Shown: piece after piece, positions 4,463 through 39,381 of the stretch | How the letters are laid out: each line of letters opens with the position of its first letter | How positions within the stretch are numbered: the first letter of the stretch is position 1 | Made by a program: the position numbers and the translations under genes | Sequence record: ON528719 | From: Shigella phage ESh6 | Reading direction: 5' to 3' (one strand) | DNA: 39,381 nucleotides | Notes under the pieces: model-generated | What the model saw: the letters and a program-made list of their open reading frames with translations, nothing else | Database searches by the model: none | What the model was told of the DNA's origin: nothing

Positions 4463-4906
4463 ATGATAAACAAGAAGAAGTATGTTGTTGATAAGGAGAC
4501 TGGTTGCTGGAACTTTAAGGGATGCAAGACGAAGACTGGCTATGGTCGCATTCGTGTAAATGGAGTCCATTGGATGGCCCACAGGTATTCCCTGAGTTGT
4601 CATCTAGGCAGACCGATAGCTGACGGAATGGTTGTGATGCACCTGTGTGATAACCCTTCATGTGTTAACCCTGAGCACCTTAAGGAAGGGACTCAGAAGG
4701 AAAACATAGAGGACTGCATCTCAAAAGGTCGCGCAACTAAGGCCACAGGTAAACGTGATGCGTCTAAGAGAGACCCTAGCGAGGAACGTAAGGCTATAGT
4801 GATTCGTAGATACCATAAAGGCTGGACCGCAACGTCCATAGCGAGATACCATAAGCTCTCTGTGGCTTGGGTCAAGAGGACCATTGAGGAGTACCTAAGT
4901 GATTGA
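4463..4906 (+). CDS. HNH homing endonuclease (free-standing), inserted relative to T7
   Basis: 147-aa ORF with 'aaggagg' RBS. Cys/His-rich N-terminus and HNH core MHLCDNPSCVNPEHL; paralogous to the gene 7.7 ORF at 23823..24224. Confidence 0.8.
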   Translation: MINKKKYVVDKETGCWNFKGCKTKTGYGRIRVNGVHWMAHRYSLSCHLGRPIADGMVVMHLCDNPSCVNPEHLKEGTQKENIEDCISKGRATKATGKRDASKRDPSEERKAIVIRRYHKGWTATSIARYHKLSVAWVKRTIEEYLSD

Positions 4907-4957: not shown

Positions 4958-4980
4958 TAATTCGACTCACTATAGGGAGA
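4958..4980 (+). promoter_or_regulatory. T7 RNAP promoter phiOR (right-origin promoter)
   Basis: 'taattcgactcactatagggaga' matches the 23-bp T7 consensus except T at -13; lies between gene 19 and 19.5. Confidence 0.8.
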
Positions 4981-7335: not shown

Positions 7336-8415
7336 GTGAACGCTATCGACATCATGAACGCTATCAACGCAATCAAAGCACTACCAATCTGTGAACTTGA
7401 TAAGCGTCAAAGTATGCTCATTGATTTGCTGGTCGAAATGGTCAACAGCGAAACGTGTGACGGTGAGCTAACCGAGTTGCATATGCCGCTCGAATGTCAA
7501 GACTGGTGGACTACCTTAAAGTGCCTGACCGCTGACGCTGGCTTCACGATGCTCGGTAATGGTCACTTCTCCGCTGCATATAGTCACCCACTGCTGCCTA
7601 ACAGAGTGATTAAGGTGGGCTTTAAGAAAGAGGATTCAGGCGCTGCGTATATCGCATTCTGCCGCATGTATCAGGGTCGCGCTGGTATCCCTAACGTCTA
7701 CGATGTTCAGCGTCATGCTGGCTGTTACACGGTGGTTCTCGATGCTCTGAATGACTGCGAACGCTATGATAACGAGGATCATGAGAAGTATGCTTCAATG
7801 GCAAGCGGCATTATTGATTATAACTCGGATGTATATAACAAGCGTACTGGATGGGATGGGGAGTTCGTCGAGACTTGCAAGTTAATCCGCAAGTTCTTTG
7901 AGGGCATAGCTTCGTTCGACATGCACAGCGGTAACATTATGTTCGACGATAATGATGTACCATACATCACCGACCCTGTGTCATTCTCACACAAGGAAGA
8001 CGGTGGCGTGTTCAGCATGGACCCTGAGGAACTCATCAAGGAAGTCGAGGAGGTCGCACGCCAGAGAGCAATCGACCGCGCTAAGGAGCGTAAAGCACGG
8101 CATGAGGGTCGCTTGCAAGCGCGTAGAGTCAAACGCATTAACCGTAAGGCACGTAAGGCACACCGCGCTAAGCGTGAAAGACTAACAGCACTATGGCGTA
8201 TGAACGAGCGTCAAAAACAGCGCAACCACGAAGTAGCTGTAGATGTACTAGGAAGAACCAACAACGCTATGCTCTGGGTCAATATGCTCTCTGGGGGCTT
8301 TAATGCGCTTGAGGAGCGAATCGCGCTGCGCTGGCGTAATGCTGACCGGATGGCTATCGCTAATGGTATGCCGCTCAACATTGATAAGAAACTGGACGCA
8401 ATGCTAATGGGATGA
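7336..8415 (+). CDS. 0.7: Serine/threonine protein kinase, host-transcription shutoff (gp0.7)
   Basis: 359-aa ORF, same length as T7 gp0.7 with high identity from memory; GTG start at 7336. Confidence 0.9.
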
Positions 8416-8484: not shown

Positions 8485-11136
8485 ATGAGTACGATTAACA
8501 TCGCTAAGAACGATTTCTCTGACATCGAACTGGCTGCTATCCCGTTCAACACTCTGGCTGACCACTATGGTGAGCGTCTAGCTCGCGAGCAGTTGGCCCT
8601 TGAGCATGAGTCTTACGAGATGGGAGAAGCACGTTTCCGCAAGATGTTTGAGCGTCAACTTAAGGCTGGCGAGGTTGCAGATAATGCGGCTGCTAAACCG
8701 CTGATTACTACTCTGCTGCCTAAGATGGTTGCACGCATCAACGACTGGTTTGAGGAAGTGAAAGCTAAGCGCGGCAAACGTCCAACCGCTTTCCAGTTCC
8801 TGCAAGAAATCAAGCCGGAATCTGTAGCGTATATCACCATTAAGACTACTCTTGCTTGCCTAACGAGCGTGGACAATACAACCGTTCAGGCTGTAGCGAG
8901 CGCCATAGGACGGGCTATCGAGGAAGAAGCTCGCTTCGGTCGAATCCGTGACCTAGAAGCTAAGCACTTCAAGAAAAACGTTGAGGAACAACTAAACAAG
9001 CGCGTAGGGCACGTCTATAAGAAGGCATTCATGCAGGTAGTCGAGGCTGACATGCTCTCTAAGGGTCTACTCGGTGGCGAGGCGTGGTCTTCATGGCACA
9101 AGGAAGACTCCATTCACGTAGGTGTGCGCTGCATTGAGATGCTCATCGAGTCCACCGGAATGGTTAGCTTGCACCGCCAAAATGCTGGCGTAGTGGGCCA
9201 AGACTCTGAGACTATCGAACTCGCACCGGAATACGCTGAGGCTATCGCAACACGGGCTGGGGCACTGGCTGGTATCTCTCCTATGTATCAGCCTTGCATA
9301 GTACCGCCTAAACCTTGGACTGGTGTCACTGGTGGTGGATACTGGGCTAACGGTCGCCGTCCGCTGGTACTGGTACGCACCCACAGCAAGAAGGCACTGA
9401 TGCGCTACGAAGATGTTTACATGCCTGAGGTATACAAGGCGATCAACATTGCGCAAAACACCGCTTGGAAAATCAACAAGAAAGTCCTAGCGGTCGCCAA
9501 CGTGATTACCAAGTGGAAGCACTGCCCAGTCGAGGACATCCCTTCGATTGAGCGCGAAGAACTCCCGATGAAACCGGAAGACATCGACACGAATCCAGAG
9601 GCGCTGACCGCTTGGAAACGTGCTGCTGCCGCTGTGTATCGTAAGGACAAGGCACGTAAGTCTCGCCGCATAAGCCTTGAGTTCATGCTTGAGCAAGCCA
9701 ATAAGTTTGCTAACCGTAAGGCCATCTGGTTCCCTTACAACATGGACTGGCGCGGTCGCGTGTACGCTGTGTCAATGTTCAATCCGCAAGGTAACGACAT
9801 GACCAAAGGACTACTGACGCTGGCTAAAGGTAAGCCAATCGGCAAGGAAGGATTCTACTGGCTGAAAATTCACGGAGCTAACTGCGCGGGAGTTGATAAG
9901 GTTCCATTCCCTGAGCGCATCAAGTTCATCGAGGATAACCACGATAACATCATGGCGTGCGCTAAGTCCCCACTGGAGAACACTTGGTGGGCTGAACAAG
10001 ATTCTCCGTTCTGCTTCCTCGCGTTCTGCTTTGAGTACGCTGGGGTACAGCACCACGGCCTGAGCTACAACTGCTCGCTGCCGCTGGCGTTCGATGGGTC
10101 TTGCTCTGGCATTCAGCACTTCTCCGCGATGCTCCGCGATGAGGTAGGCGGTCGGGCTGTTAACCTGCTGCCTAGTGAAACCGTTCAAGACATCTATGGG
10201 ATTGTTGCTAAGAAAGTCAACGAGATTCTGCAAGCGGATGCAATCAACGGGACCGATAACGAAGTAGTTACCGTGACCGATGAGAACACTGGAGAAATCT
10301 CTGAGAAAATCAAGCTGGGTACTAAAGCACTGGCTGGTCAATGGCTTGCCTACGGTGTGACCCGTAGCGTCACTAAACGTTCAGTCATGACGCTGGCGTA
10401 TGGTTCCAAAGAGTTCGGATTCCGTCAGCAAGTCCTTGAGGACACCATACAGCCAGCCATTGATTCCGGCAAAGGTCTGATGTTCACCCAACCTAATCAG
10501 GCCGCTGGGTATATGGCTAAGCTGATTTGGGAGTCAGTGAGCGTTACCGTAGTGGCTGCTGTAGAGGCTATGAACTGGCTTAAGTCTGCTGCGAAGCTGC
10601 TGGCTGCTGAGGTCAAAGACAAGAAGACTGGGGAGATTCTTCGTAAACGCTGTGCGGTGTATTGGGTAACTCCTGATGGCTTCCCTGTGTGGCAAGAATA
10701 CAAGAAGCCAATTCAGACTCGCTTGAACTTGATGTTCCTCGGTCAGTTCCGCCTACAGCCGACAATCAACACCAACAAGGACAGCGAGATTGATGCCCAT
10801 AAGCAGGAATCTGGTATAGCTCCTAACTTTGTACACAGCCAAGACGGTAGCCACCTACGTAAGACTGTAGTGTGGGCGCATGAGAAGTACGGAATCGAAT
10901 CTTTCGCACTGATTCATGACTCCTTCGGGACCATTCCGGCTGACGCTGCCAACCTCTTCAAAGCTGTTCGTGAAACGATGGTTGACACCTACGAGTCATG
11001 CGATGTGCTTGCAGACTTCTACAACCAGTTCGCGGACCAGTTACATGAGTCTCAACTGGATAAAATGCCAGCACTTCCGGCTAAAGGTAACTTGAATTTA
11101 CGAGACATCTTAGAGTCAGACTTCGCGTTTGCGTGA
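8485..11136 (+). CDS. 1: T7-type single-subunit DNA-dependent RNA polymerase
   Basis: 883-aa ORF, same length as T7 RNAP and near-identical throughout; specificity-loop region RLQPTINTNKDSEIDAHKQ conserved, consistent with T7-type promoters. Confidence 0.98.
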   Translation: MSTINIAKNDFSDIELAAIPFNTLADHYGERLAREQLALEHESYEMGEARFRKMFERQLKAGEVADNAAAKPLITTLLPKMVARINDWFEEVKAKRGKRPTAFQFLQEIKPESVAYITIKTTLACLTSVDNTTVQAVASAIGRAIEEEARFGRIRDLEAKHFKKNVEEQLNKRVGHVYKKAFMQVVEADMLSKGLLGGEAWSSWHKEDSIHVGVRCIEMLIESTGMVSLHRQNAGVVGQDSETIELAPEYAEAIATRAGALAGISPMYQPCIVPPKPWTGVTGGGYWANGRRPLVLVRTHSKKALMRYEDVYMPEVYKAINIAQNTAWKINKKVLAVANVITKWKHCPVEDIPSIEREELPMKPEDIDTNPEALTAWKRAAAAVYRKDKARKSRRISLEFMLEQANKFANRKAIWFPYNMDWRGRVYAVSMFNPQGNDMTKGLLTLAKGKPIGKEGFYWLKIHGANCAGVDKVPFPERIKFIEDNHDNIMACAKSPLENTWWAEQDSPFCFLAFCFEYAGVQHHGLSYNCSLPLAFDGSCSGIQHFSAMLRDEVGGRAVNLLPSETVQDIYGIVAKKVNEILQADAINGTDNEVVTVTDENTGEISEKIKLGTKALAGQWLAYGVTRSVTKRSVMTLAYGSKEFGFRQQVLEDTIQPAIDSGKGLMFTQPNQAAGYMAKLIWESVSVTVVAAVEAMNWLKSAAKLLAAEVKDKKTGEILRKRCAVYWVTPDGFPVWQEYKKPIQTRLNLMFLGQFRLQPTINTNKDSEIDAHKQESGIAPNFVHSQDGSHLRKTVVWAHEKYGIESFALIHDSFGTIPADAANLFKAVRETMVDTYESCDVLADFYNQFADQLHESQLDKMPALPAKGNLNLRDILESDFAFA

Positions 11137-12878: not shown

Positions 12879-12971
12879 ATGATGTATTTAATGCCATTAC
12901 TCATTATTATCATTGGATGTCTTGCGCTTCATTTTAAGGATGACGACGACATGCCAGATGGTCACGCTTAA
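12879..12971 (+). CDS. 1.5: gp1.5 homolog (small hydrophobic/acidic peptide)
   Basis: 30-codon [33 protein letters not shown], similar to T7 gp1.5 from memory; sits between phi1.5 and phi1.6. Confidence 0.6.
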
Positions 12972-12991
12972 TACGACTCACTATAGGAGAC
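12969..12991 (+). promoter_or_regulatory. T7 RNAP promoter phi1.6
   Basis: 'taatacgactcactataggagac'; overlaps the 1.5 stop codon. Confidence 0.85.
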
Positions 12992-12996
12992 ACTAT

Positions 12997-13257
12997 ATGT
13001 TCCGACTTCATTTCAACAAAAGCATTAAGAATTTCACAGTTCGCCGTGCTGACCGTTCAATCGTATGTGCGAGCGAACGCCGAGCTAAGTTACCTCTTAT
13101 TGGTAATACAGTTCCTCTGGCACCGAGCGTCCACATCATTATCACTCGTGGTGACTTCGAGAAAGCAATAGACAAGAAACGTCCGGTTCTTAGCGTGGCA
13201 GTGACCCGCTTCCCGTTCGTCCGTCTGTTACTCAAACGAATCAAGGAGGTGTTCTGA
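12997..13257 (+). CDS. 1.6: gp1.6 homolog
   Basis: 86 aa from ATG 12997 (ORF track 12913..13257 starts upstream of the promoter); length and position match T7 gp1.6. Confidence 0.75.
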
Positions 13258-14556: not shown

Positions 14557-15012
14557 GTGGCTGGCGCATACGCTGCGCGTGGTATCAGAAAGGTCGGGAC
14601 ATTCCGTTCCGGCCTAGAAGATAAGGTCTCTAAGCAGCTAGAGGGTAAGGGCATTAAGTTCGACTATGAACTGTGGAAAATCCCTTACGTTGTCCCTGCG
14701 AGTAACCATGTCTACACTCCAGACTTCCTGCTGCCTAACGGAATCTTTATTGAAACCAAAGGTTTATGGGAGAGTGACGACCGAAAGAAACACTTACTGA
14801 TTCGCGAACAGTTTCCAGAACTGGACATCCGTCTGGTATTTTCTAGCTCACGTACCAAGCTGTATAAAGGGTCTCCGACCAGTTACGGCGAATGGTGTGA
14901 GAAGCACGGTATTCTGTTTGCTGACAAATTAGTTCCTATAGAATGGCTCAAAGAACCTAAAAAGGAGGTGCCATTTGACAAGCTGAAACAATCGAAGGGA
15001 GGAAAGAAATAA
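14557..15012 (+). CDS. 3: Endonuclease I, Holliday-junction resolvase (gp3)
   Basis: 151-aa ORF with GTG start; ...GIRKVG.FRSGLEDKVSKQLE.KGIKF...PDFLLPNGIF.ETKGLWESDDRKKHLLIREQ matches T7 gp3. Confidence 0.9.
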   Translation: MAGAYAARGIRKVGTFRSGLEDKVSKQLEGKGIKFDYELWKIPYVVPASNHVYTPDFLLPNGIFIETKGLWESDDRKKHLLIREQFPELDIRLVFSSSRTKLYKGSPTSYGEWCEKHGILFADKLVPIEWLKEPKKEVPFDKLKQSKGGKK

Positions 15013-15467
15013 TGGCTCGTGTACAGTTTAAACAACGTGAATCTACTGACGCAATCTTTGTTCACTGCTCGGCTACCAAGCCAAGTCAGAATGTGGGTGT
15101 CCGTGAGATTCGCCAGTGGCATAAAGAGCAAGGTTGGCTTGATGTGGGGTATCACTTTATCATCAAGCGTGATGGTACTGTAGAGGAAGGCCGAGATGAG
15201 ATGGCTGTAGGTTCTCACGCTAAGGGCCACAACCACAACTCTATTGGTGTCTGCCTTGTTGGTGGAATTGACGATAAAGGTAAGTTCGACGCTAACTTTA
15301 CGCCAGCCCAAATGCAATCCCTTCGCTCACTGCTTGTCACACTGCTGGCTAAGTATGAAGGCGCTGTACTTCGCGCGCATCATGAGGTCGCGCCGAAGGC
15401 ATGTCCTAGTTTCAACCTGAAACGCTGGTGGGAGGAGAATGAACTGGTTACGTCTGACCATGAGTAA
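15012..15467 (+). CDS. 3.5: Lysozyme, N-acetylmuramoyl-L-alanine amidase; also RNAP inhibitor (gp3.5)
   Basis: 151-aa ORF near-identical to T7 lysozyme (MARVQFKQRESTDAIFVHCSATKPSQNVGVREIRQWH...). Confidence 0.95.
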   Translation: MARVQFKQRESTDAIFVHCSATKPSQNVGVREIRQWHKEQGWLDVGYHFIIKRDGTVEEGRDEMAVGSHAKGHNHNSIGVCLVGGIDDKGKFDANFTPAQMQSLRSLLVTLLAKYEGAVLRAHHEVAPKACPSFNLKRWWEENELVTSDHE

Positions 15468-15873
15468 TTTACGCATAGACCCGTCAAGTCCTTCCGGTAT
15501 CTCCAAAGGTGATAAACCTATTGGGTGGATTCACAAAGGAAGATATTGGAGGATGCGGATAAACGGTAAAGCAGTGATGTGCCATGTGGTGATAATGGAA
15601 CTAAAAACAGGAGAACCGATTCCAGAAGGACTGGAAGTTGACCACATAAACAGGAACGGGTTGGACAATTCAATTGGGAACCTTCGCCTAGTTGACCGCC
15701 AAACCAATGTCTGTAATACCGGATGTCGTAAGGACTCAAAGACAGGGGTTAAGGGTGTTAGCTATCGAGAAGGTAGACTCAAGCCTTATTCCGCACACAA
15801 ACAGCGTAATGGTATTCGAAAGTGTAAATCTTTCGAGACTATTGAGGAAGCTGTAAAGTGGCTCGATAATTAA
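15460..15873 (+). CDS. 3.8: HNH endonuclease with AP2-like DNA-binding domain, at the gene 3.8 position
   Basis: ORF track 15439..15873; likely start ATG 15460. HNH motif EVDHINRNGLDNSIGNLRLVDRQTN and AP2-like GVKGVSYREGRLKPYSAHKQRNG. Not orthologous to recalled T7 gp3.8. Confidence 0.72.
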   Translation: MSNLRIDPSSPSGISKGDKPIGWIHKGRYWRMRINGKAVMCHVVIMELKTGEPIPEGLEVDHINRNGLDNSIGNLRLVDRQTNVCNTGCRKDSKTGVKGVSYREGRLKPYSAHKQRNGIRKCKSFETIEEAVKWLDN

Positions 15874-22480: not shown

Positions 22481-22540
22481 AACTCAAGGTCCCTAAATTA
22501 ATACGACTCACTATAGGGAGATAGGGGCCTTTATGATTAT
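22481..22540 (+). other. RNase III site R6.5-like hairpin enclosing phi6.5
   Basis: 'aactcaaggtccctaaat...gggagataggggccttta': complementary arms flank the promoter. Confidence 0.45.
22499..22521 (+). promoter_or_regulatory. T7 RNAP class III promoter phi6.5
   Basis: 'taatacgactcactatagggaga': perfect 23-bp consensus. Confidence 0.9.
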
Positions 22541-22834: not shown

Positions 22835-23101
22835 ATGTGTTTCTCACCGAAAGTTAAAGTTCCGAAGATGGATACCAATCAGATTCGAGCCGTTGAGCCA
22901 GCGCCTCTGACCAAAGAAGTGTCAAGCGTGGAGTTCGGTGGGTCTTCTGATGAGACGGAAACCGAAGGCACCGAAGTGTCTGGACGCAAAGGCCTCAAGG
23001 TCGAACGTGATGATTCCGTAGCGAAGTCTAAAGCTGGTGGTACTGGTTCAGCTCGTATGAAATCTTCAATCCGTAAGTCCGCATTTGGAGGCAAGAAGTG
23101 A
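22835..23101 (+). CDS. 6.7: gp6.7 homolog (small virion protein)
   Basis: 88 aa from ATG 22835 (MCFSPKVKVPKMDTNQIRAVEPAPL...), within ORF track 22814..23101. Confidence 0.75.
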   Translation: MCFSPKVKVPKMDTNQIRAVEPAPLTKEVSSVEFGGSSDETETEGTEVSGRKGLKVERDDSVAKSKAGGTGSARMKSSIRKSAFGGKK

Positions 23102-24224: not shown

Positions 24225-25834
24225 TGGCTGAGAAACGAACAGGACTTGCGGAGGATGGCGCAAAGTCGGTCTATGAGCGATTGAAGAACGAACGCGCCCC
24301 TTATGAGACACGTGCTCAGAATTGCGCTCAATATACCATCCCATCATTGTTCCCTAAGGACTCCGATAACTCATCTACAGACTACACAACTCCGTGGCAA
24401 GCTGTGGGTGCTCGCGGTCTCAATAACTTGGCCTCTAAGCTCATGCTGGCTCTCTTCCCGATGCAAACGTGGATGAAACTGACCATCTCTGAGTATGAGG
24501 CCAAACAGTTACTAGATGACCCAGATGGACTCGCTAAGGTCGATGAGGGTCTCTCGATGGTAGAGCGTATCATCATGAACTACATTGAGTCTAACAGTTA
24601 CCGAGTGACTCTCTTTGAGGCTCTCAAGCAGTTAGTCGTAGCTGGTAACGTCCTGCTGTACCTACCGGAACCGGAAGGGTCAAACTACAATCCCATGAAG
24701 CTGTACCGATTGTCTTCTTATGTGGTCCAACGAGACGCATTCGGCAACGTTCTGCAAATGGTGACTCGTGACCAAATAGCTTTCGGTGCTCTACCTGAGG
24801 ACATCCGTAAGGCTGTAGAAGGTCAAGGTGGTGAGAAGAAACCTGATGAGACCATTGATGTGTACACTCACATCTACTTGGACGAAGAGTCAGACGAATA
24901 CCTCCGCTATGAAGAGGTTGAAGGTATGGAGATACAAGGCTCCGATGGGTCTTACCCTAAAGATGCTTGCCCATACATCCCTATTCGTATGGTTCGTCTG
25001 GATGGTGAATCCTACGGTCGTTCGTACATTGAGGAATACTTAGGTGACTTACGGTCCCTTGAGAATCTCCAAGAGGCTATCGTCAAGATGTCCATGATTA
25101 GCTCTAAGGTTATCGGCTTAGTGAATCCTGCTGGTATCACCCAGCCACGCCGACTGACCAAAGCTCAGACTGGTGACTTCGTTACGGGTCGTCCAGAAGA
25201 CATCTCGTTCCTCCAACTGGAGAAGCAAGCAGACTTTACTGTAGCCAAGGCTGTCAGTGACGCTATTGAGGCTCGCCTTTCGTTTGCCTTTATGTTGAAC
25301 TCTGCGGTTCAGCGCACAGGTGAACGTGTGACCGCCGAAGAGATTCGATATGTAGCTTCTGAACTTGAAGATACTTTAGGTGGTGTCTACTCCATCCTTT
25401 CTCAAGAATTACAATTGCCTCTGGTACGAGTGCTCTTGAAGCAACTACAAGCCACGCAACAGATTCCAGAGTTACCTAAGGAAGCCGTAGAGCCAACCAT
25501 TAGTACAGGTCTGGAAGCAATTGGTCGAGGACAAGACCTTGATAAGCTGGAGCGTTGTGTCGCTGCGTGGGCTGCTCTTGCTCCTATGCGTGATGACCCT
25601 GACATCAACCTTGCTATGATTAAGCTGCGCATTGCTAACGCCATCGGTATTGACACTTCTGGTATCCTTCTTACCGAAGAACAGAAGCAACAGAAGATGG
25701 CTCAACAGTCTATGCAAATGGGTATGGATAGCGGTGCTGCTGCGCTTGGTCAAGGTATGGCTGCACAGGCTACGGCTTCACCTGAGGCTATGGCTGCTGC
25801 TGCTGATTCCGTAGGTTTACAGCCGGGCATTTAA
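24224..25834 (+). CDS. 8: Portal (head-to-tail connector) protein gp8
   Basis: 536 aa from ATG 24224 (MAEKRTGLAEDGAKSVYERLKN...), overlapping the 7.7 stop; near-identical to T7 gp8. ORF track starts 15 nt upstream. Confidence 0.95.
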   Translation: MAEKRTGLAEDGAKSVYERLKNERAPYETRAQNCAQYTIPSLFPKDSDNSSTDYTTPWQAVGARGLNNLASKLMLALFPMQTWMKLTISEYEAKQLLDDPDGLAKVDEGLSMVERIIMNYIESNSYRVTLFEALKQLVVAGNVLLYLPEPEGSNYNPMKLYRLSSYVVQRDAFGNVLQMVTRDQIAFGALPEDIRKAVEGQGGEKKPDETIDVYTHIYLDEESDEYLRYEEVEGMEIQGSDGSYPKDACPYIPIRMVRLDGESYGRSYIEEYLGDLRSLENLQEAIVKMSMISSKVIGLVNPAGITQPRRLTKAQTGDFVTGRPEDISFLQLEKQADFTVAKAVSDAIEARLSFAFMLNSAVQRTGERVTAEEIRYVASELEDTLGGVYSILSQELQLPLVRVLLKQLQATQQIPELPKEAVEPTISTGLEAIGRGQDLDKLERCVAAWAALAPMRDDPDINLAMIKLRIANAIGIDTSGILLTEEQKQQKMAQQSMQMGMDSGAAALGQGMAAQATASPEAMAAAADSVGLQPGI

Positions 25835-25854
25835 TACGACTCACTATAGGGAGA
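25832..25854 (+). promoter_or_regulatory. T7 RNAP class III promoter phi9
   Basis: 'taatacgactcactatagggaga': perfect consensus; overlaps the gene 8 stop. Confidence 0.9.
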
Positions 25855-25933
25855 CCTCATCTTTGAAATGAGCGATGACAAGAGGTTGGAGTCCTCGGTC
25901 TTCCTGTAGTTCAACTTTAAGGAGACAATAATA

Positions 25934-26857
25934 ATGGCTGAATCTAATGCAGACGTATATGCGTATTTTGGCGTGAACTCCGCTGTGATGTCTGGTGGTT
26001 CCGTTGAGGAACATGAGCAAAATATGCTGGCTCTTGATGTTGCTGCCCGTGATGGCGATGATGCAATCGAGTTAGCGTCCGACGAAGTGGAAACAGAACG
26101 CGACCTGTATGATAACTCTGACCCATTCGGTCAAGAGGATGATGCGGGGCGCATTCAGGTCCGTATTGGTGATGGCTCTGAGCCGACCGATGTGGACGCT
26201 GGAGAAGAAGGCTTTGAGGGCACAGAAGGTCCCGAAGAGTTTACCCCGCTGGGCGAGACTCCAGAAGAACTGGTAGCTGCCTCTGAGCAACTTGGCGAGC
26301 ACGAAGAGGGCTTCCAAGAGATGATTAACATTGCTGCCGAGCGTGGCATGAGTGTTGAGACCATTGAGGCTATCCAGCGTGAGTACGAGGAGAACGAAGA
26401 GTTGTCCGCTGAGTCCTACGCTAAGCTGGCTGAAATTGGCTACACTAAGGCTTTCATTGACTCGTACATTCGTGGTCAAGAAGCTCTGGTGGAGCAGTAC
26501 GTAAACAGTGTCATTGAGTACGCTGGTGGTCGTGAACGTTTTGACGCACTGTATAATCACCTTGAGACGCACAACCCTGAGGCTGCACAGTCGCTGGACA
26601 ATGCGTTGACCAATCGTGACTTAGCGACCGTTAAGGCTATCATCAACTTGGCTGGCGAGTCTCGCGCTAAGGCGTTTGGTCGTAAGCCAACTCGCAGTGT
26701 GACTAATCGTGCTATTCCGGCTAAACCTCAGGCTACCAAGCGTGAAGGCTTTGCGGACCGTAGCGAGATGATTAAAGCTATGAGCGACCCTCGGTATCGC
26801 ACAGATGCCAATTATCGTCGTCAAGTCGAACAGAAAGTAATCGACTCGAACTTCTGA
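25934..26857 (+). CDS. 9: Capsid assembly/scaffolding protein gp9
   Basis: 307-aa acidic ORF, same length as T7 gp9. Confidence 0.93.
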   Translation: MAESNADVYAYFGVNSAVMSGGSVEEHEQNMLALDVAARDGDDAIELASDEVETERDLYDNSDPFGQEDDAGRIQVRIGDGSEPTDVDAGEEGFEGTEGPEEFTPLGETPEELVAASEQLGEHEEGFQEMINIAAERGMSVETIEAIQREYEENEELSAESYAKLAEIGYTKAFIDSYIRGQEALVEQYVNSVIEYAGGRERFDALYNHLETHNPEAAQSLDNALTNRDLATVKAIINLAGESRAKAFGRKPTRSVTNRAIPAKPQATKREGFADRSEMIKAMSDPRYRTDANYRRQVEQKVIDSNF

Positions 26858-26870
26858 TAGACTCTGAAAT

Positions 26871-26893
26871 TAATACTACTCACTATAGGGAGA
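26871..26893 (+). promoter_or_regulatory. T7 RNAP promoter phi10 (variant, T at -11)
   Basis: 'taatacTactcactatagggaga' followed by 'ccacaacggtttccctctagaaat' leader and strong RBS 'aaggaga'; one mismatch at -11. Confidence 0.8.
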
Positions 26894-26951
26894 CCACAAC
26901 GGTTTCCCTCTAGAAATCATTATTGTTTAACTTTAAGAAGGAGACATACAT

Positions 26952-27983
26952 ATGACTACTATGACTGGTGGACAGCAACTGGGTACTAACCAGGGTAAAG
27001 GTGCAAGTGCTTCTGATAAACTGGCGTTGTTCTTGAAGGTATTTGGTGGTGAAGTTCTGACTGCATTCGCTCGCACCTCTGTGACCACTTCTCGCCACAT
27101 GGTCCGTTCCATCTCCAGCGGTAAATCCGCTCAGTTCCCTGTACTGGGTCGCACTCAGGCAGCTTACTTGTCTCCGGGTGAGAACCTCGATGATATTCGT
27201 AAAGACATCAAACACACCGAGAAGACCATCACCATTGATGGCCTCCTGACGGCAGACGTTCTGATTTACGACATTGAGGACGCGATGAACCACTATGACG
27301 TTCGCTCTGAGTATACCTCTCAGTTGGGTGAATCTCTGGCTATGGCTGCTGATGGTGCGGTTCTGGCTGAGATTGCTGGCCTGTGTAACTTGGCGAGCGC
27401 CTCTAATGAGAACATCGATGGCTTAGGTACTGCTACCGTAATTGAGACCACTCAGGACAAGGCAGCACTTACCGACCAAGTTGCGCTTGGTAAGGAGATT
27501 ATTGCGGCTCTGACTAAGGCTCGTGCGGCTCTGACTAAGAACTATGTTCCGGCTGCTGACCGTGTGTTCTACTGCGACCCAGATAGCTACTCTGCGATTC
27601 TGGCAGCACTTATGCCGAACGCAGCAAACTACGCTGCTCTGATTGACCCTGAGAAGGGTTCTATCCGCAACGTTATGGGCTTTGAGGTTGTAGAAGTTCC
27701 CCACCTCACCGCTGGTGGCGCTGGCACCTCTCGTGCGGATGCTACCGGTCAGAAGCACGCCTTCCCTGCCACTAAGAGTGGTAACGACAAGGTTGCTAAG
27801 GACAACGTTATCGGCCTGTTCATGCACCGCTCTGCTGTAGGTACTGTTAAACTGCGCGACTTGGCTCTGGAGCGCGCTCGCCGTGCTAACTTCCAAGCAG
27901 ACCAGATTATTGCTAAGTATGCAATGGGCCACGGTGGTCTGCGCCCAGAAGCTGCTGGTGCAGTGGTTTTCAAGGGGAAGTAA
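26952..27983 (+). CDS. 10A: Major capsid protein 10A
   Basis: 343-aa ORF; MTTMTGGQQLGTNQGKG... close to T7 gp10A. Confidence 0.97.
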   Translation: MTTMTGGQQLGTNQGKGASASDKLALFLKVFGGEVLTAFARTSVTTSRHMVRSISSGKSAQFPVLGRTQAAYLSPGENLDDIRKDIKHTEKTITIDGLLTADVLIYDIEDAMNHYDVRSEYTSQLGESLAMAADGAVLAEIAGLCNLASASNENIDGLGTATVIETTQDKAALTDQVALGKEIIAALTKARAALTKNYVPAADRVFYCDPDSYSAILAALMPNAANYAALIDPEKGSIRNVMGFEVVEVPHLTAGGAGTSRADATGQKHAFPATKSGNDKVAKDNVIGLFMHRSAVGTVKLRDLALERARRANFQADQIIAKYAMGHGGLRPEAAGAVVFKGK

Positions 27984-28141
27984 TGCTGGGAGTGGCCTCA
28001 ACGGTCGCTGCTAGTCCCGAAGAGGAGAGTGTTACTTCAACAGAAGAAACCTTAACGCCAGCACAGAAGGCCGCACGCACCCGCGCTGCTAACAAAGCCC
28101 GAAAGGAAGCTGAGTTGGCTGCTGCCACCGCTGAGCAATAA
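26952..28141 (+). CDS. 10B: Minor capsid protein 10B, produced by programmed -1 frameshift near 27965-27971
   Basis: Slippery 'g gtt ttc' before the 10A stop; the -1 frame stays open to TAA at 28139-28141 and encodes ...MLGVASTVAASPEEESVTSTEETLTPAQKAARTRAANKARKEAELAAATAEQ. Confidence 0.75.
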
Positions 28142-28147
28142 CTAGCA

Positions 28148-28189
28148 TAACCCCTTGGGGCCTCTAAACGGGTCTTGAGGGGTTTTTTG
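28148..28189 (+). terminator. T7 RNAP terminator Tphi
   Basis: 'ataaccccttggggcctctaaacgggtcttgaggggttttttg': GC-rich hairpin plus U-run, identical to canonical Tphi. Confidence 0.92.
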
Positions 28190-28209
28190 CTGAAAGGAGG
28201 AGGAACTAT

Positions 28210-28800
28210 ATGCGCTCTTACGATATGAACGTTGAGACTGCCGCTGAGTTATCCGCTGTGAACGACATTCTGGCATCTATCGGAGAACCTCCGGTATCGA
28301 CGCTGGAAGGTGATGCTAACGCAGACGTGGCGAACGCTCGACGTATTCTCAATAAGATTAACCGACAGATTCAGTCTCGTGGCTGGACGTTCAACATTGA
28401 GGAAGGTGTAACGCTCTTACCTGATGTTTACTCCAACCTGATTGTATACAGCGATGACTATTTATCATTAATGGCTACTTCTGGTCAATCAATCTACGTG
28501 AACCGAGGTGGCTATGTGTATGACCGAACGAGCCAGACAGACCGCTTTGACTCTGGGATTACCGTTAACATTATTCGTCTTCGGGACTACGATGAGATGC
28601 CTGAGTGCTTCCGCTACTGGATTGTCACTAAGGCTTCCCGTCAGTTCAACAACCGATTCTTTGGGGCACCAGAGGTAGAGGGTGTACTTCAAGAAGAGGA
28701 AGATGAAGCTCGACGTCTCTGTATGGAGTACGAAGTGGACTATGGTGGGTACAATATGCTTGATGGTGACGCGTTCACTTCTGGTCTACTGACTCGCTAA
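28210..28800 (+). CDS. 11: Tail tubular protein A (gatekeeper, gp11)
   Basis: 196-aa ORF with RBS 'aaaggaggagg'; same length as T7 gp11. Confidence 0.93.
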
Positions 28801-37500: not shown

Positions 37501-38533
37501 CACACAGGAACTGGCTGCTCGCTCTCCATGGACTAAGATGCTGAACGGGACAACTAACTACCTTCTGGATGCTGCGCGTCAAGGGATGCTTGGAGATGTT
37601 ATTAGTGCCACCCTAACAGGTAAGACTACCCGCTGGGAGAAAGAAGGATTCCTTCGTGGTGCCTCAGTAACTCCTGAGCAGATGGCTGGCATCAAGTCTC
37701 TCATCAAGGAACATATGGTACGTGGTGAGGACGGGAAGTTTACCGTCAAGGACAAGCAAGCGTTCTCTATGGACCCTCGCGCTATGGACTTATGGCGACT
37801 TGCTGACAAGGTAGCTGATGAGGCAATGTTGCGTCCGCATAAGGTGTCCTTACAGGATTCCCATGCGTTCGGAGCATTGGGTAAGATGGTTATGCAGTTT
37901 AAGTCTTTCACTATCAAGTCCCTTAACTCTAAGTTCGTTAGAACCTTCTACGATGGTTATAAGAACAACCGAGCGATTGACGCTGCGCTGAGCATCATCA
38001 CCTCTATGGGTCTCGCTGGTGGTTTCTACGCTATGTCTGTACACGTCAAAGCGTATGGGATGCCTAAGGAGAAACGTAAGGAGTACTTGGAGCGCGCACT
38101 GGACCCAACCATGATTGCCCACGCTGCGTTATCTCGTAGTTCTCACTTGGGTGCTCCTTTTGCTATTGCTGACCTAGTTGGCGGTGTTTTAGGGTTCGAG
38201 TCCTCCAAGATGGTTCGCTCCACGATTCTACCTAAGGACACAGTGAAGGAGCGCGACCCTAATAAGCCTTATACCTCGTGGGAGGTAATGGGTAATATGG
38301 GTTCCAACATTCTTGAACAGATGCCATCGGCTGGATTTGTGGCTAACGTTGGGGCTTCCCTGCTTAATACTGCTGGCGTTGTGAATGCTCCAAACAAAGC
38401 TACTGAGCAGGACTTCATGACTGGTCTCATGAACTCCACAAAAGAGTTAGTACCGAACGATCCATTGACGCAACAGCTTGTGTTGAAGATTTATGAGGCG
38501 AATGGTGTTAACTTGAGGGAGCGTCGGAAATAA
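34577..38533 (+). CDS. 16: Internal virion (core) protein D with N-terminal lytic transglycosylase domain, gp16
   Basis: 1318-aa ORF, same length as T7 gp16; N-terminal SLT-like motif ...VAWTESRFVPTAKSKTGPLGVMQFTKATAKALG.... Confidence 0.95.
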   Translation: MDKYDKNVPSDYDGLFQKAADANGVSYDLLRKVAWTESRFVPTAKSKTGPLGVMQFTKATAKALGLRVTDGPDDDRLNPELAINAAAKHLAELVSKFDGDELKAALAYNQGEGRLGNPQLEAYSKGDFASISEEGRNYLRNLLDVAKSPMAGQLETFGGITPKGKGIPAEVGLAGIGHSQKVTQELPESTSFDVKGIEQEAPAKPFAKDFWETHGETLDEYNSRSTFFGFKNAAEAELSNSVAGMAFRAGRLDNGFDVFKDTITPTRWNSHIWTPEELEKIRTDVKNPAYINVVTGGSPENLDDLIKLANENFENDSLAAEAGLGAKLSAGIIGAGVDPLSYAPMVGVTGKGFKLINKALVVGAESAALNVASEGLRTSVAGGDSDYAGAALGGFVFGAGMSAISDAIAAGLKRSKPEAEFDNEFIGPMMRMEARETARNANSTDLSRMNTENMKFAGEHNGVPYEDLPTEKGAVVLHDGSVLSASNPINPKTLKEFSEVDPEKAARGIKLAGFTEIGLKTLGSDDADIRRVAIDLVRSPTGMQSGASGKFGATASDIHERLHGTDQRTYNDLYKAMSDAMKDPEFSTGGAKMSREETRYTIYRRAVLAIERPELQKVLTPSERIVMDIIKRHFDTKRELMENPAIFGNTKAVSIFPESRHKGTYVPHVYDRHAKALMIQRYGAEGLQEGIARSWMNSYVSRPEVKARVDDMLKEVHGVKEVTPEMVEKYAMDKAYGISHSDQFTNSSIIEENIEGLVGIENNSFLEARNLFDSDLSITMPDGQQFSVNDLRDFDMFRIMPAYDRRINGDIAIMGSTGKTTKELKDEILALKAKAEGDGKKTGEVHALMDTVKILTGRARRNNDTVWETSMRAINDLGFFAKNAYMGAQNITEIAGMFATGNVRALGHGIPILRDTLYKSKPVSAKELKELHASLFGKEVDQLIRPKRADIVQRLREATDTGPAVANIVGTLKYSTQELAARSPWTKMLNGTTNYLLDAARQGMLGDVISATLTGKTTRWEKEGFLRGASVTPEQMAGIKSLIKEHMVRGEDGKFTVKDKQAFSMDPRAMDLWRLADKVADEAMLRPHKVSLQDSHAFGALGKMVMQFKSFTIKSLNSKFVRTFYDGYKNNRAIDAALSIITSMGLAGGFYAMSVHVKAYGMPKEKRKEYLERALDPTMIAHAALSRSSHLGAPFAIADLVGGVLGFESSKMVRSTILPKDTVKERDPNKPYTSWEVMGNMGSNILEQMPSAGFVANVGASLLNTAGVVNAPNKATEQDFMTGLMNSTKELVPNDPLTQQLVLKIYEANGVNLRERRK

Positions 38534-38553
38534 TACGACTCACTATAGGGAGA
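38531..38553 (+). promoter_or_regulatory. T7 RNAP class III promoter phi17
   Basis: 'taatacgactcactatagggaga': perfect consensus; overlaps the gene 16 stop. Confidence 0.9.
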
Positions 38554-38604
38554 GGTGAAAGAATCTTCTCCCTGTAGTCTCTTAGATTTACTTAAGGAGG
38601 TCAA

Positions 38605-39381
38605 ATGGCTAACGTAATTAAAACCGTTTTGACTTACCAGTTAGATGGCTCCAATCGTGATTTTAATATCCCGTTTGAGTATCTAGCCCGTAAGTTCGTA
38701 GTGGTAACTCTTATTGGGGTAGACCGTAAGGTCCTTACTATCAATACAGACTACCGTTTTGCTACGCGTACTACCATCTCACTGACTAAGGCTTGGGGTC
38801 CGGCAGATGGCTACACTACCATCGAGTTACGTCGAGTAACCTCCACGACAGACCGATTGGTTGACTTTACGGACGGCTCAATCCTCCGTGCGCATGACCT
38901 TAACGTTGCTCAGATTCAAACGATGCACGTAGCGGAAGAGGCCCGTGACCTAACTGCCGATACTATCGGTGTTAATAACGATGGTCATTTGGATGCTCGT
39001 GGTCGTAAGATTGTTAACTTGGCGTATGCCACAAGTGACTATGATGCCGTTCCTTTAAAGCAGGTTAAAGAGCGTGAATACTCTGCATGGAATGCTGTAA
39101 CAAAATCTAACGAACACGCTGACAGGTCCAATAATGAAGCAAACCGTTCTCGTGATGAGGCCAACCGTGCTCAACGTGAAGCTGACCGTTCGACCCAACA
39201 GGCAGGTGTCTCTACGGCACAGGCAGTTGAGTCCAAAACGCAAGCTGACCGTTCCAACTCTGAGGCCAACCGTGCTAAAGGTTATGCTGATAGTATGACC
39301 ACAAGTGTCGCTGAGGCCAAGAAGCAAGCTGACCGTTCCAACTCTGAGGCAAATCGTTCCCGTGATGAGGCCAACCGTGCT
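38605..39381 (+). CDS. 17: Tail fibre protein gp17, 5' portion (continues past the window end into 1..1047)
   Basis: ATG 38605 after 'aaggagg'; MANVIKTVLTYQLDGSNRDFNIPFEYLARKFVVVTLIGVDRKVLTIN... near-identical to the T7 gp17 N-terminal domain, then heptad-rich repeats. No stop before the window end. Confidence 0.92.
   Translation, partial: MANVIKTVLTYQLDGSNRDFNIPFEYLARKFVVVTLIGVDRKVLTINTDYRFATRTTISLTKAWGPADGYTTIELRRVTSTTDRLVDFTDGSILRAHDLNVAQIQTMHVAEEARDLTADTIGVNNDGHLDARGRKIVNLAYATSDYDAVPLKQVKEREYSAWNAVTKSNEHADRSNNEANRSRDEANRAQREADRSTQQAGVSTAQAVESKTQADRSNSEANRAKGYADSMTTSVAEAKKQADRSNSEANRSRDEANRA

Follow-up and report, generated by a model that had tools for sequence, protein, structure and literature searches.

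Does a single base in the promoter in front of the major capsid gene impair the transcription of that gene in a T7-like phage, and is the base real? The locus lies in Shigella phage ESh6 (record ON528719), and all coordinates below are positions on the plus strand of the whole 39,381-nt stretch analyzed (the window). This stretch is the whole genome of a T7-like Teseptimavirus, in circularly permuted form. The closest records are Shigella phage ESh2, Escherichia phages Bas103 and Bas104, and Cedecea phage Yanou. Their identity to ESh6 is only ~93% over 25 kb, therefore ESh6 represents a distinct lineage.

The phi10 site and the capsid gene region

The phi10 promoter occupies positions 26871–26893 (+) and reads TAATACTACTCACTATAGGGAGA, spanning -17 to +6. 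Numbering from the initial G of GGGAGA (26888) as +1 places 26877 at -11. The non-template strand has T at this position, where the consensus base is G. This single mismatch leaves phi10 with a 22/23 match, short of the perfect 23/23 class III consensus. The sequence-only reading had reported the replacement of G by T, and the base at 26877 bears it out.

Gene 9 stops at 26857 and the ATG of gene 10A is at 26952; the element lies within the 94 nt that separate them. Gene 9 (25934–26857, +) encodes the scaffolding protein of 307 residues, according to the annotations of the relatives. Gene 10A (26952–27983, +), which is served by phi10, encodes the major capsid protein of 343 residues, and an identical protein is present in a Logan assembly. 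The gene 9 stop codon ends 13 nt before the promoter. A coding effect of the change at 26877 was rejected, as the site is intergenic.

Alignment with eight close relatives yielded 95% identity over 131 nt in the phi10 region. The flanks were identical to those of the relatives, except for -11 and one leader position common to ESh2 and ESh3. The slot and its flanks match phi10 in all eight relatives and in T7 (annotated at 22904). On the basis of position, flanks, and sequence, we assign the element as the orthologue of the T7-group (Teseptimavirus) phi10 late promoter. Its position-weight score was 34.2, and the 17 promoters of T7 itself span 26.0–39.2. Acquisition of the site by recombination with a phage of different promoter specificity was rejected, since the flanks are those of close relatives and only one base differs.

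The putative phi10 transcript leader (26888–26951, +), with the start site adopted from T7, extends from +1 to the start of gene 10 and contains the Shine–Dalgarno motif AAGGAG at 26938–26943. The alignment with the eight close relatives revealed no private change of ESh6 in this leader. A separate variation was observed in the Logan contig SRR28559705_2637, the phi10 leader of which has one additional C directly following GGGAGA (GGGAGACCCACAACGG vs. GGGAGACCACAACGG in all others).

Downstream of the capsid gene, the Tphi terminator (hairpin and T-run; 28149–28190, +) is the first plus-strand terminator after phi9 and phi10. No plus-strand terminator was found between phi9 and Tphi. The region around the gene 10A stop (27940–28139) retains a T7-like slippery context, GGTTTTCAAGGGGAAGTAATG. 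The reading frame downstream of the stop, to about 28139, fits a frameshifted minor capsid protein 10B; this putative 10B frame is annotated as a separate 52-residue 'head protein' in the relatives.

The promoter set and the genome around it

The 17 annotated promoters of T7 (record V01146) were used to build a position-weight matrix. Scanning ESh6 with this matrix returned exactly 17 sites, in T7 order. A consensus search allowing up to three mismatches gave 11 sites, as compared to 0 expected in shuffled sequences. The scan placed the starts of phiOR and phiOL at 4958 and 5787, followed by 1.1A (11145), 1.1B (11220), 1.3 (11706), 1.5 (12849), 1.6 (12969), 2.5 (13790), 3.8 (15871, with A at -11), 4c (17030), 4.3 (17659), and 4.7 (18233). 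The first class III promoter is phi6.5 (22499–22521, +). It is followed by phi9 (25832–25854, +), which lies 1,039 bp upstream of phi10, and then by phi10 itself, phi13 (start 31239), and phi17 (start 38531). The consensus search and the position-weight scan both agreed with the earlier claim that phi6.5, phi9, phi13, and phi17 are perfect, each matching at 23/23 positions. The 20 class III gene promoters of T7, ESh2, Bas103, and Yanou were all 23/23.

A replacement promoter near gene 10 was ruled out, as the position-weight scan gave the 17 syntenic sites only and no extra one. The only sigma-70-like match in 25700–28300 is located within gene 9, at chance expectation, and was rejected as a substitute promoter. 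Escape from GANTC (HinfI-type) restriction or methylation (GACTC to TACTC), weighed on sequence grounds only, was also rejected as meaningless, because the 16 other promoters keep GACTC.

Some middle promoters deviate at another position. ESh6 has T at -2 of phi1.5, phi1.6, and phi3.8 (12864, 12984, and 15886, respectively), as in the class III consensus, where T7, ESh2, Bas103, and Yanou have A. The T is private to ESh6 at phi1.5 and phi1.6. The three substitutions make these class II promoters, and thus the middle promoters of ESh6, slightly more class III-like. In ESh2 (ON528716.1, a record flagged UNVERIFIED), phi1.6 at 8373–8395 reads TAATACGACTAACTAAAGGAGAC, with A at -7. This position is reported to be intolerant of any change, so phi1.6 of ESh2 provides a second case of a private change in a promoter base that is critical.

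Several other features of the window were recorded. The permuted ends (38531–39381 and 1–1587) appear to split tail-fibre gene 17, the ORF of which resumes at 52–1047. A lambda gpK-like tail-fibre assembly protein (Pfam Caudo_TAP) is encoded at 1060–1587, an arrangement shared with Bas103 and Yanou but not with T7. Two HNH endonuclease ORFs matching Pfam HNH_3 were found on the plus strand, one after the large terminase gene (4463–4906) and one between the lysozyme gene (15012–15467) and phi3.8 (15439–15873). These are probably mobile homing endonucleases, varying between relatives. The ORF in the gene 1.6 position (12913–13254, +) matched PF06726 through residues 29–95 (E = 5e-23). The name of this family, 'Bladder cancer-related protein BC10', is unexpected for a homologue of T7 gp1.6.

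The polymerase and the published effect of T at -11

Gene 1 (8485–11136, +) encodes a T7-type single-subunit RNA polymerase of 883 residues, 865 of which are identical to those of T7 RNAP (98%). The specificity loop (739–770, including N748, R756, and Q758) is identical to that of T7, in line with the sequence-only reading, which had called it unchanged. The same holds for the AT-rich recognition loop (93–101), the helix 206–225, and the intercalating hairpin (230–245). The 18 differences from T7 RNAP include H726Y, near the base of the specificity loop. All of them are common to relatives that have G at -11, and no residue proved private to ESh6 when the enzyme was compared with that of T7 and with the four polymerases of the phage collection that resemble it most. 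A compensating polymerase change was therefore rejected.

The earlier reading had also stated, from established biochemistry, that -11 is read by the specificity loop. This view is supported by the discussion section of Komura 2018 (PMC5937735), where N748 is described as making a base-specific contact with non-template -11. The contact of N748 with this base has also been described by molecular dynamics (PMC8874028).

The effect of substitutions at -11 on T7 RNAP has been addressed by several approaches. Kartje 2020 (PMC7948468), with a separate reaction for every mutant template, reported that a purine is needed at -11 and that A has 'no effect'. In Ohuchi 2019 (PMC6395800), positions -12 to -7 were randomized and 43 clones were selected. 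Counting the -11 base in these 43 clones, we obtained 21 G, 21 A, 1 C, and 0 T. Komura 2018 (PMC5937735) applied pooled, barcoded in vitro transcription. According to the sections of that paper used here, G at -11 was kept in 93% of the 244 promoters having >1% activity, as compared to ~70% in the library, and the non-G bases seen among these active promoters were all A. The size of the effect can be gauged from paired double mutants in the same sections. The score of 73.3 for -1T fell to 0.107 for -1T/-11T, a drop of ~690-fold; -15G scored ~6.4 and -15G/-11A scored 1.83, a drop of ~3.5-fold. The model of McLellan and Salis (2026, bioRxiv) labels T at -11 as 'deactivating' and names the motif TACT, which is the exact 4-mer at -11 to -8 of ESh6 phi10.

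The four studies agree in direction and rank: G is similar to A, and both greatly exceed T and C. Mutants with T at -11 are reportedly also found in another T7 promoter mutagenesis study, that of Imburgio from 2000. The requirement at -11 is thus for a purine rather than for G specifically, and A is tolerated. All these activity data were obtained for T7 RNAP in vitro, in several cases in pooled or competitive formats with limiting enzyme, and such formats probably exaggerate the binding defect caused by T. In ESh6 phi10, the base at the position requiring a purine is T. We therefore consider the element a probable defective phi10 orthologue rather than an active class III promoter, and ESh6 phi10 is probably severely weakened, being weak or nearly silent. 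Since a purine is required and T is strongly unfavorable, the predicted defect is larger than the earlier wording, that capsid transcription 'may be weaker', had implied.

Bases found at -11 in nature

To place the variant among its orthologues, we compared phi10 sites from several collections. All eight nearest phage records have G at phi10 -11 in the alignment. Megablast requires an exact 28-mer, and a 45-mer centered on the site has 22 bases on each side, so the central base must match for a hit to be returned. In phage records, this query gave 0 hits for the T version and 166 for the G version. The exact variant 23-mer had no match in IMG/VR, and the eight IMG/VR contigs with the phi10 context all carry G. 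A metagenome scan for a non-G base (H pattern) at -11 in the phi10 context found none. Exact-protein look-ups of gp10A and gp11 led to nine metagenome or Logan assemblies; seven of these span phi10, each having G. The corresponding look-ups of gp9 and gp8 returned nothing on record. The closest relative over genes 8–12 is the Logan contig SRR28559705_2637 mentioned above, which is 98.7–99% identical to ESh6 and has G at -11. The variant promoter sequence was not found printed in the literature searched. Accordingly, phi10 -11T is private to ESh6 among all orthologues compared.

The same position was inspected throughout the promoter sets of five genomes (ESh6, T7, ESh2, Bas103, and Yanou; 85 promoters). 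The base was G outside phi3.8, phiOL, and ESh6 phi10. It was A at phi3.8 in 5/5 genomes and at phiOL in T7 and Yanou. Three IMG/VR sites were otherwise consensus with a non-G base at -11, and all of them were phiOL with A. Apart from ESh6 phi10, the natural T7-group promoters examined have G or A at -11, never a pyrimidine. The lack of pyrimidines at these sites points to strong selection against them, and it makes an artefact somewhat likelier here than at an average site.

Substitution or sequencing artefact

The base-call error that the sequence-only reading had offered as one of two options is the first alternative to be weighed. According to this explanation, the true base is G, and T is a consensus error, a minority variant, or an oxidative-damage call. 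The T is a singleton with 0 matches in phages, IMG/VR, and metagenomes, every orthologue has G, and the change hits a position where the examined natural promoters of the group show no pyrimidine. Moreover, G-to-T is the classic library artefact of 8-oxoG. These points are balanced by features of the site and of the genome. Position 26877 is outside any homopolymer or repeat, and the large genes of ESh6 are full-length ORFs.

The overall pattern of private differences also speaks against an error. Among 28,999 positions where four relatives do not vary, ESh6 has 754 private substitutions (2.6%). Their distribution over codon positions (81 first, 41 second, and 428 third) is evolution-like, with private rates of 7.45% at third and 0.51% at second positions, and 433 of the coding changes are synonymous as compared to 117 non-synonymous ones. 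This third-position and synonymous bias indicates that the 754 differences are real divergence, far outweighing error. Of these private changes, which look real, 54 are G-to-T. Additionally, a real mutation could survive, as the loss of phi10 is tolerated experimentally in T7 (PMC6068830). Taken together, we regard an artefact as unlikely, though deserving to be kept in mind.

The promoter cores stand out against this background. Only 1 private change was found at 110 comparable sites in the cores (-12 to -5), and this is phi10 -11T. At the third-codon-position rate, ~8 would be expected (P of 1 or fewer = 0.002). Consequently, the cores are strongly constrained, and phi10 -11T is the single exception. 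The other four private promoter changes, phiOL -13, phi1.5 -2, phi1.5 +5, and phi1.6 -2, all affect tolerant positions, and the two at -2 go toward the class III consensus. With a private rate of 2.6%, one private promoter hit is not statistically extraordinary. As a lone core exception, phi10 -11T is comparable to the 117 non-synonymous changes of the lineage.

Predicted consequences for capsid expression

The T itself, its restriction to ESh6, the unchanged polymerase, and the intact phi9, phi6.5, and Tphi were observed directly. We consider it likely that phi10 -11T is a real private mutation that reduces promoter function and is buffered by the surrounding transcription units. In this mechanism, a G-to-T substitution private to the ESh6 lineage or stock would have placed a pyrimidine at phi10 -11. 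The unchanged polymerase, the N748 residue of which needs a purine, would bind phi10 poorly, and initiation at phi10 would reach only a small part of the rate of a consensus promoter. The main source of capsid mRNA would in that case be read-through from the intact phi9 (~1 kb upstream) and phi6.5, up to Tphi. The mRNA levels for the capsid protein, gp11, and gp12 would be lower, yet sufficient. The mutation would be mildly deleterious or nearly neutral, and it could persist by drift or through bottlenecks during isolation or plaque purification. This explanation and the artefact, the two leading ones here, coincide with the alternatives of a weaker promoter and a base-call error raised from the sequence earlier.

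The buffering step is modeled on promoter knock-outs in T7. Replacement of phi10 by an arbitrary sequence gave a viable phage, and the fitness loss, determined for T7 in a laboratory host and not for ESh6, was not significant (P = 0.0749; Paff et al. 2018, PMC6068830). Single knock-outs of phi9 and phi10 led to a similar drop in gene 10A mRNA, and only the double knock-out reduced it by 84–86% (PMC6068830). T7 tolerates the loss of phi10 because gene 10 is also covered by transcripts that start at phi9 and phi6.5 and run to Tphi. In ESh6, phi9 and phi6.5 are perfect and no terminator precedes Tphi, so read-through should still carry gene 10, and phi9 is expected to be the main substitute source of its mRNA. 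The effect of T at -11 and the tolerance to phi10 loss come from the literature, and we infer that both apply to ESh6. On this basis, gene 10 mRNA would be roughly halved, the mRNA of genes 11 and 12 would be somewhat reduced, and a small fitness cost would be expected. A cost of this size would allow the mutation to persist.

Two further explanations accept the T as real and assign it a different consequence. The first is that phi10 works normally in vivo due to supercoiling, to high polymerase levels late in infection, or to subtle effects of the 18 polymerase substitutions. The published measurements were all made in vitro with T7 RNAP, several of them in limiting-enzyme competition, and the ESh6 enzyme does differ from that of T7 at 18 residues, such as H726Y. 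However, relatives in which -11 is G have all of these differences too, and the known contact elements are all identical to those of T7. Four independent assays, one of them with single-template reactions, agree on the purine requirement, and the exclusive use of G or A in natural promoters implies selection in vivo. Normal function is therefore improbable in our estimation.

The second is adaptive down-tuning, where lower or later initiation at phi10 would be beneficial in the host of ESh6, e.g., by coupling capsid and scaffold synthesis on the phi9 transcript or by lightening the capsid load. The phage survives a change in the promoter serving its most highly expressed gene, and the A-to-T changes at -2 of phi1.5, phi1.6, and phi3.8 indicate that the promoter set is not frozen; nevertheless, we find tuning very improbable, as none of the relatives has the T, the 98.7–99% identical contig included, the T7 promoter knock-outs only lowered fitness (PMC6068830), no private change accompanies it in the leader, ribosome-binding site, or polymerase, and a single event cannot show selection. 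A similarly slight chance is given to the broader proposition that -11T is either a selected variant that silences phi10, ties capsid expression to the phi9 and phi6.5 transcripts, and thereby shifts the capsid-to-scaffold ratio or the timing of expression, or an example of a pyrimidine at -11 that functions in vivo against all the in vitro data.

Published work already covers the function of -11, the consequence of a T at this position, and the dispensability of phi10; only the natural occurrence of the -11T allele is new, and it opens no new question. If the T is real, a natural phage, ESh6, has a mutation described in print as 'deactivating' in the promoter that serves its most highly expressed gene. 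For those who use ESh6 promoters or annotate promoters by consensus match, it follows that activity of this phi10 should not be assumed.

Comparison with known systems

The closest counterpart is phi10 of T7 (V01146, 22904), known as the pET vector promoter. It occupies the same slot between genes 9 and 10 and shares 22/23 positions with ESh6 phi10. Both phages share the initially transcribed sequence, GGGAGACCACAACGGTTTCCCTCTAG, and the recognition elements of the cognate polymerases are identical. The difference is at -11, the base contacted by N748, which is G in T7 and T in ESh6.

Synthetic T7 promoter mutants with T at -11 contain the same core change (TACT at -11 to -8), and their activity was measured or inferred to be strongly reduced. 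These are laboratory templates assayed in vitro, whereas the ESh6 variant sits in an assembled phage genome. The natural phiOL and phi3.8 promoters with A at -11 likewise depart from G within the same promoter family. Their A is a purine, is conserved across phages, and retains activity; in contrast, the T of ESh6 phi10 is a pyrimidine and private.

T3-type promoters do have a pyrimidine, C, at -11, and they are served by a related enzyme of the single-subunit RNAP family, the specificity switch involving residue 748. In T3, however, the polymerase co-varies (N748D) and all promoters are changed, whereas ESh6 keeps N748 and only 1 of its 17 promoters is changed.

The engineered T7 phi10 knock-outs (PMC6068830) resemble the proposed situation in ESh6 in terms of consequences: phi10 function is lost, phi9 is intact, gene 10 is transcribed by read-through, and the phage is viable. 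The knock-outs replaced 18–23 bp, whereas the ESh6 change, of a single base, could be reverted by one further mutation and may leave some activity. If real, the ESh6 allele would be a wild counterpart to these engineered phages, in which overlapping read-through makes each late promoter individually dispensable, so that mildly harmful promoter mutations can persist.
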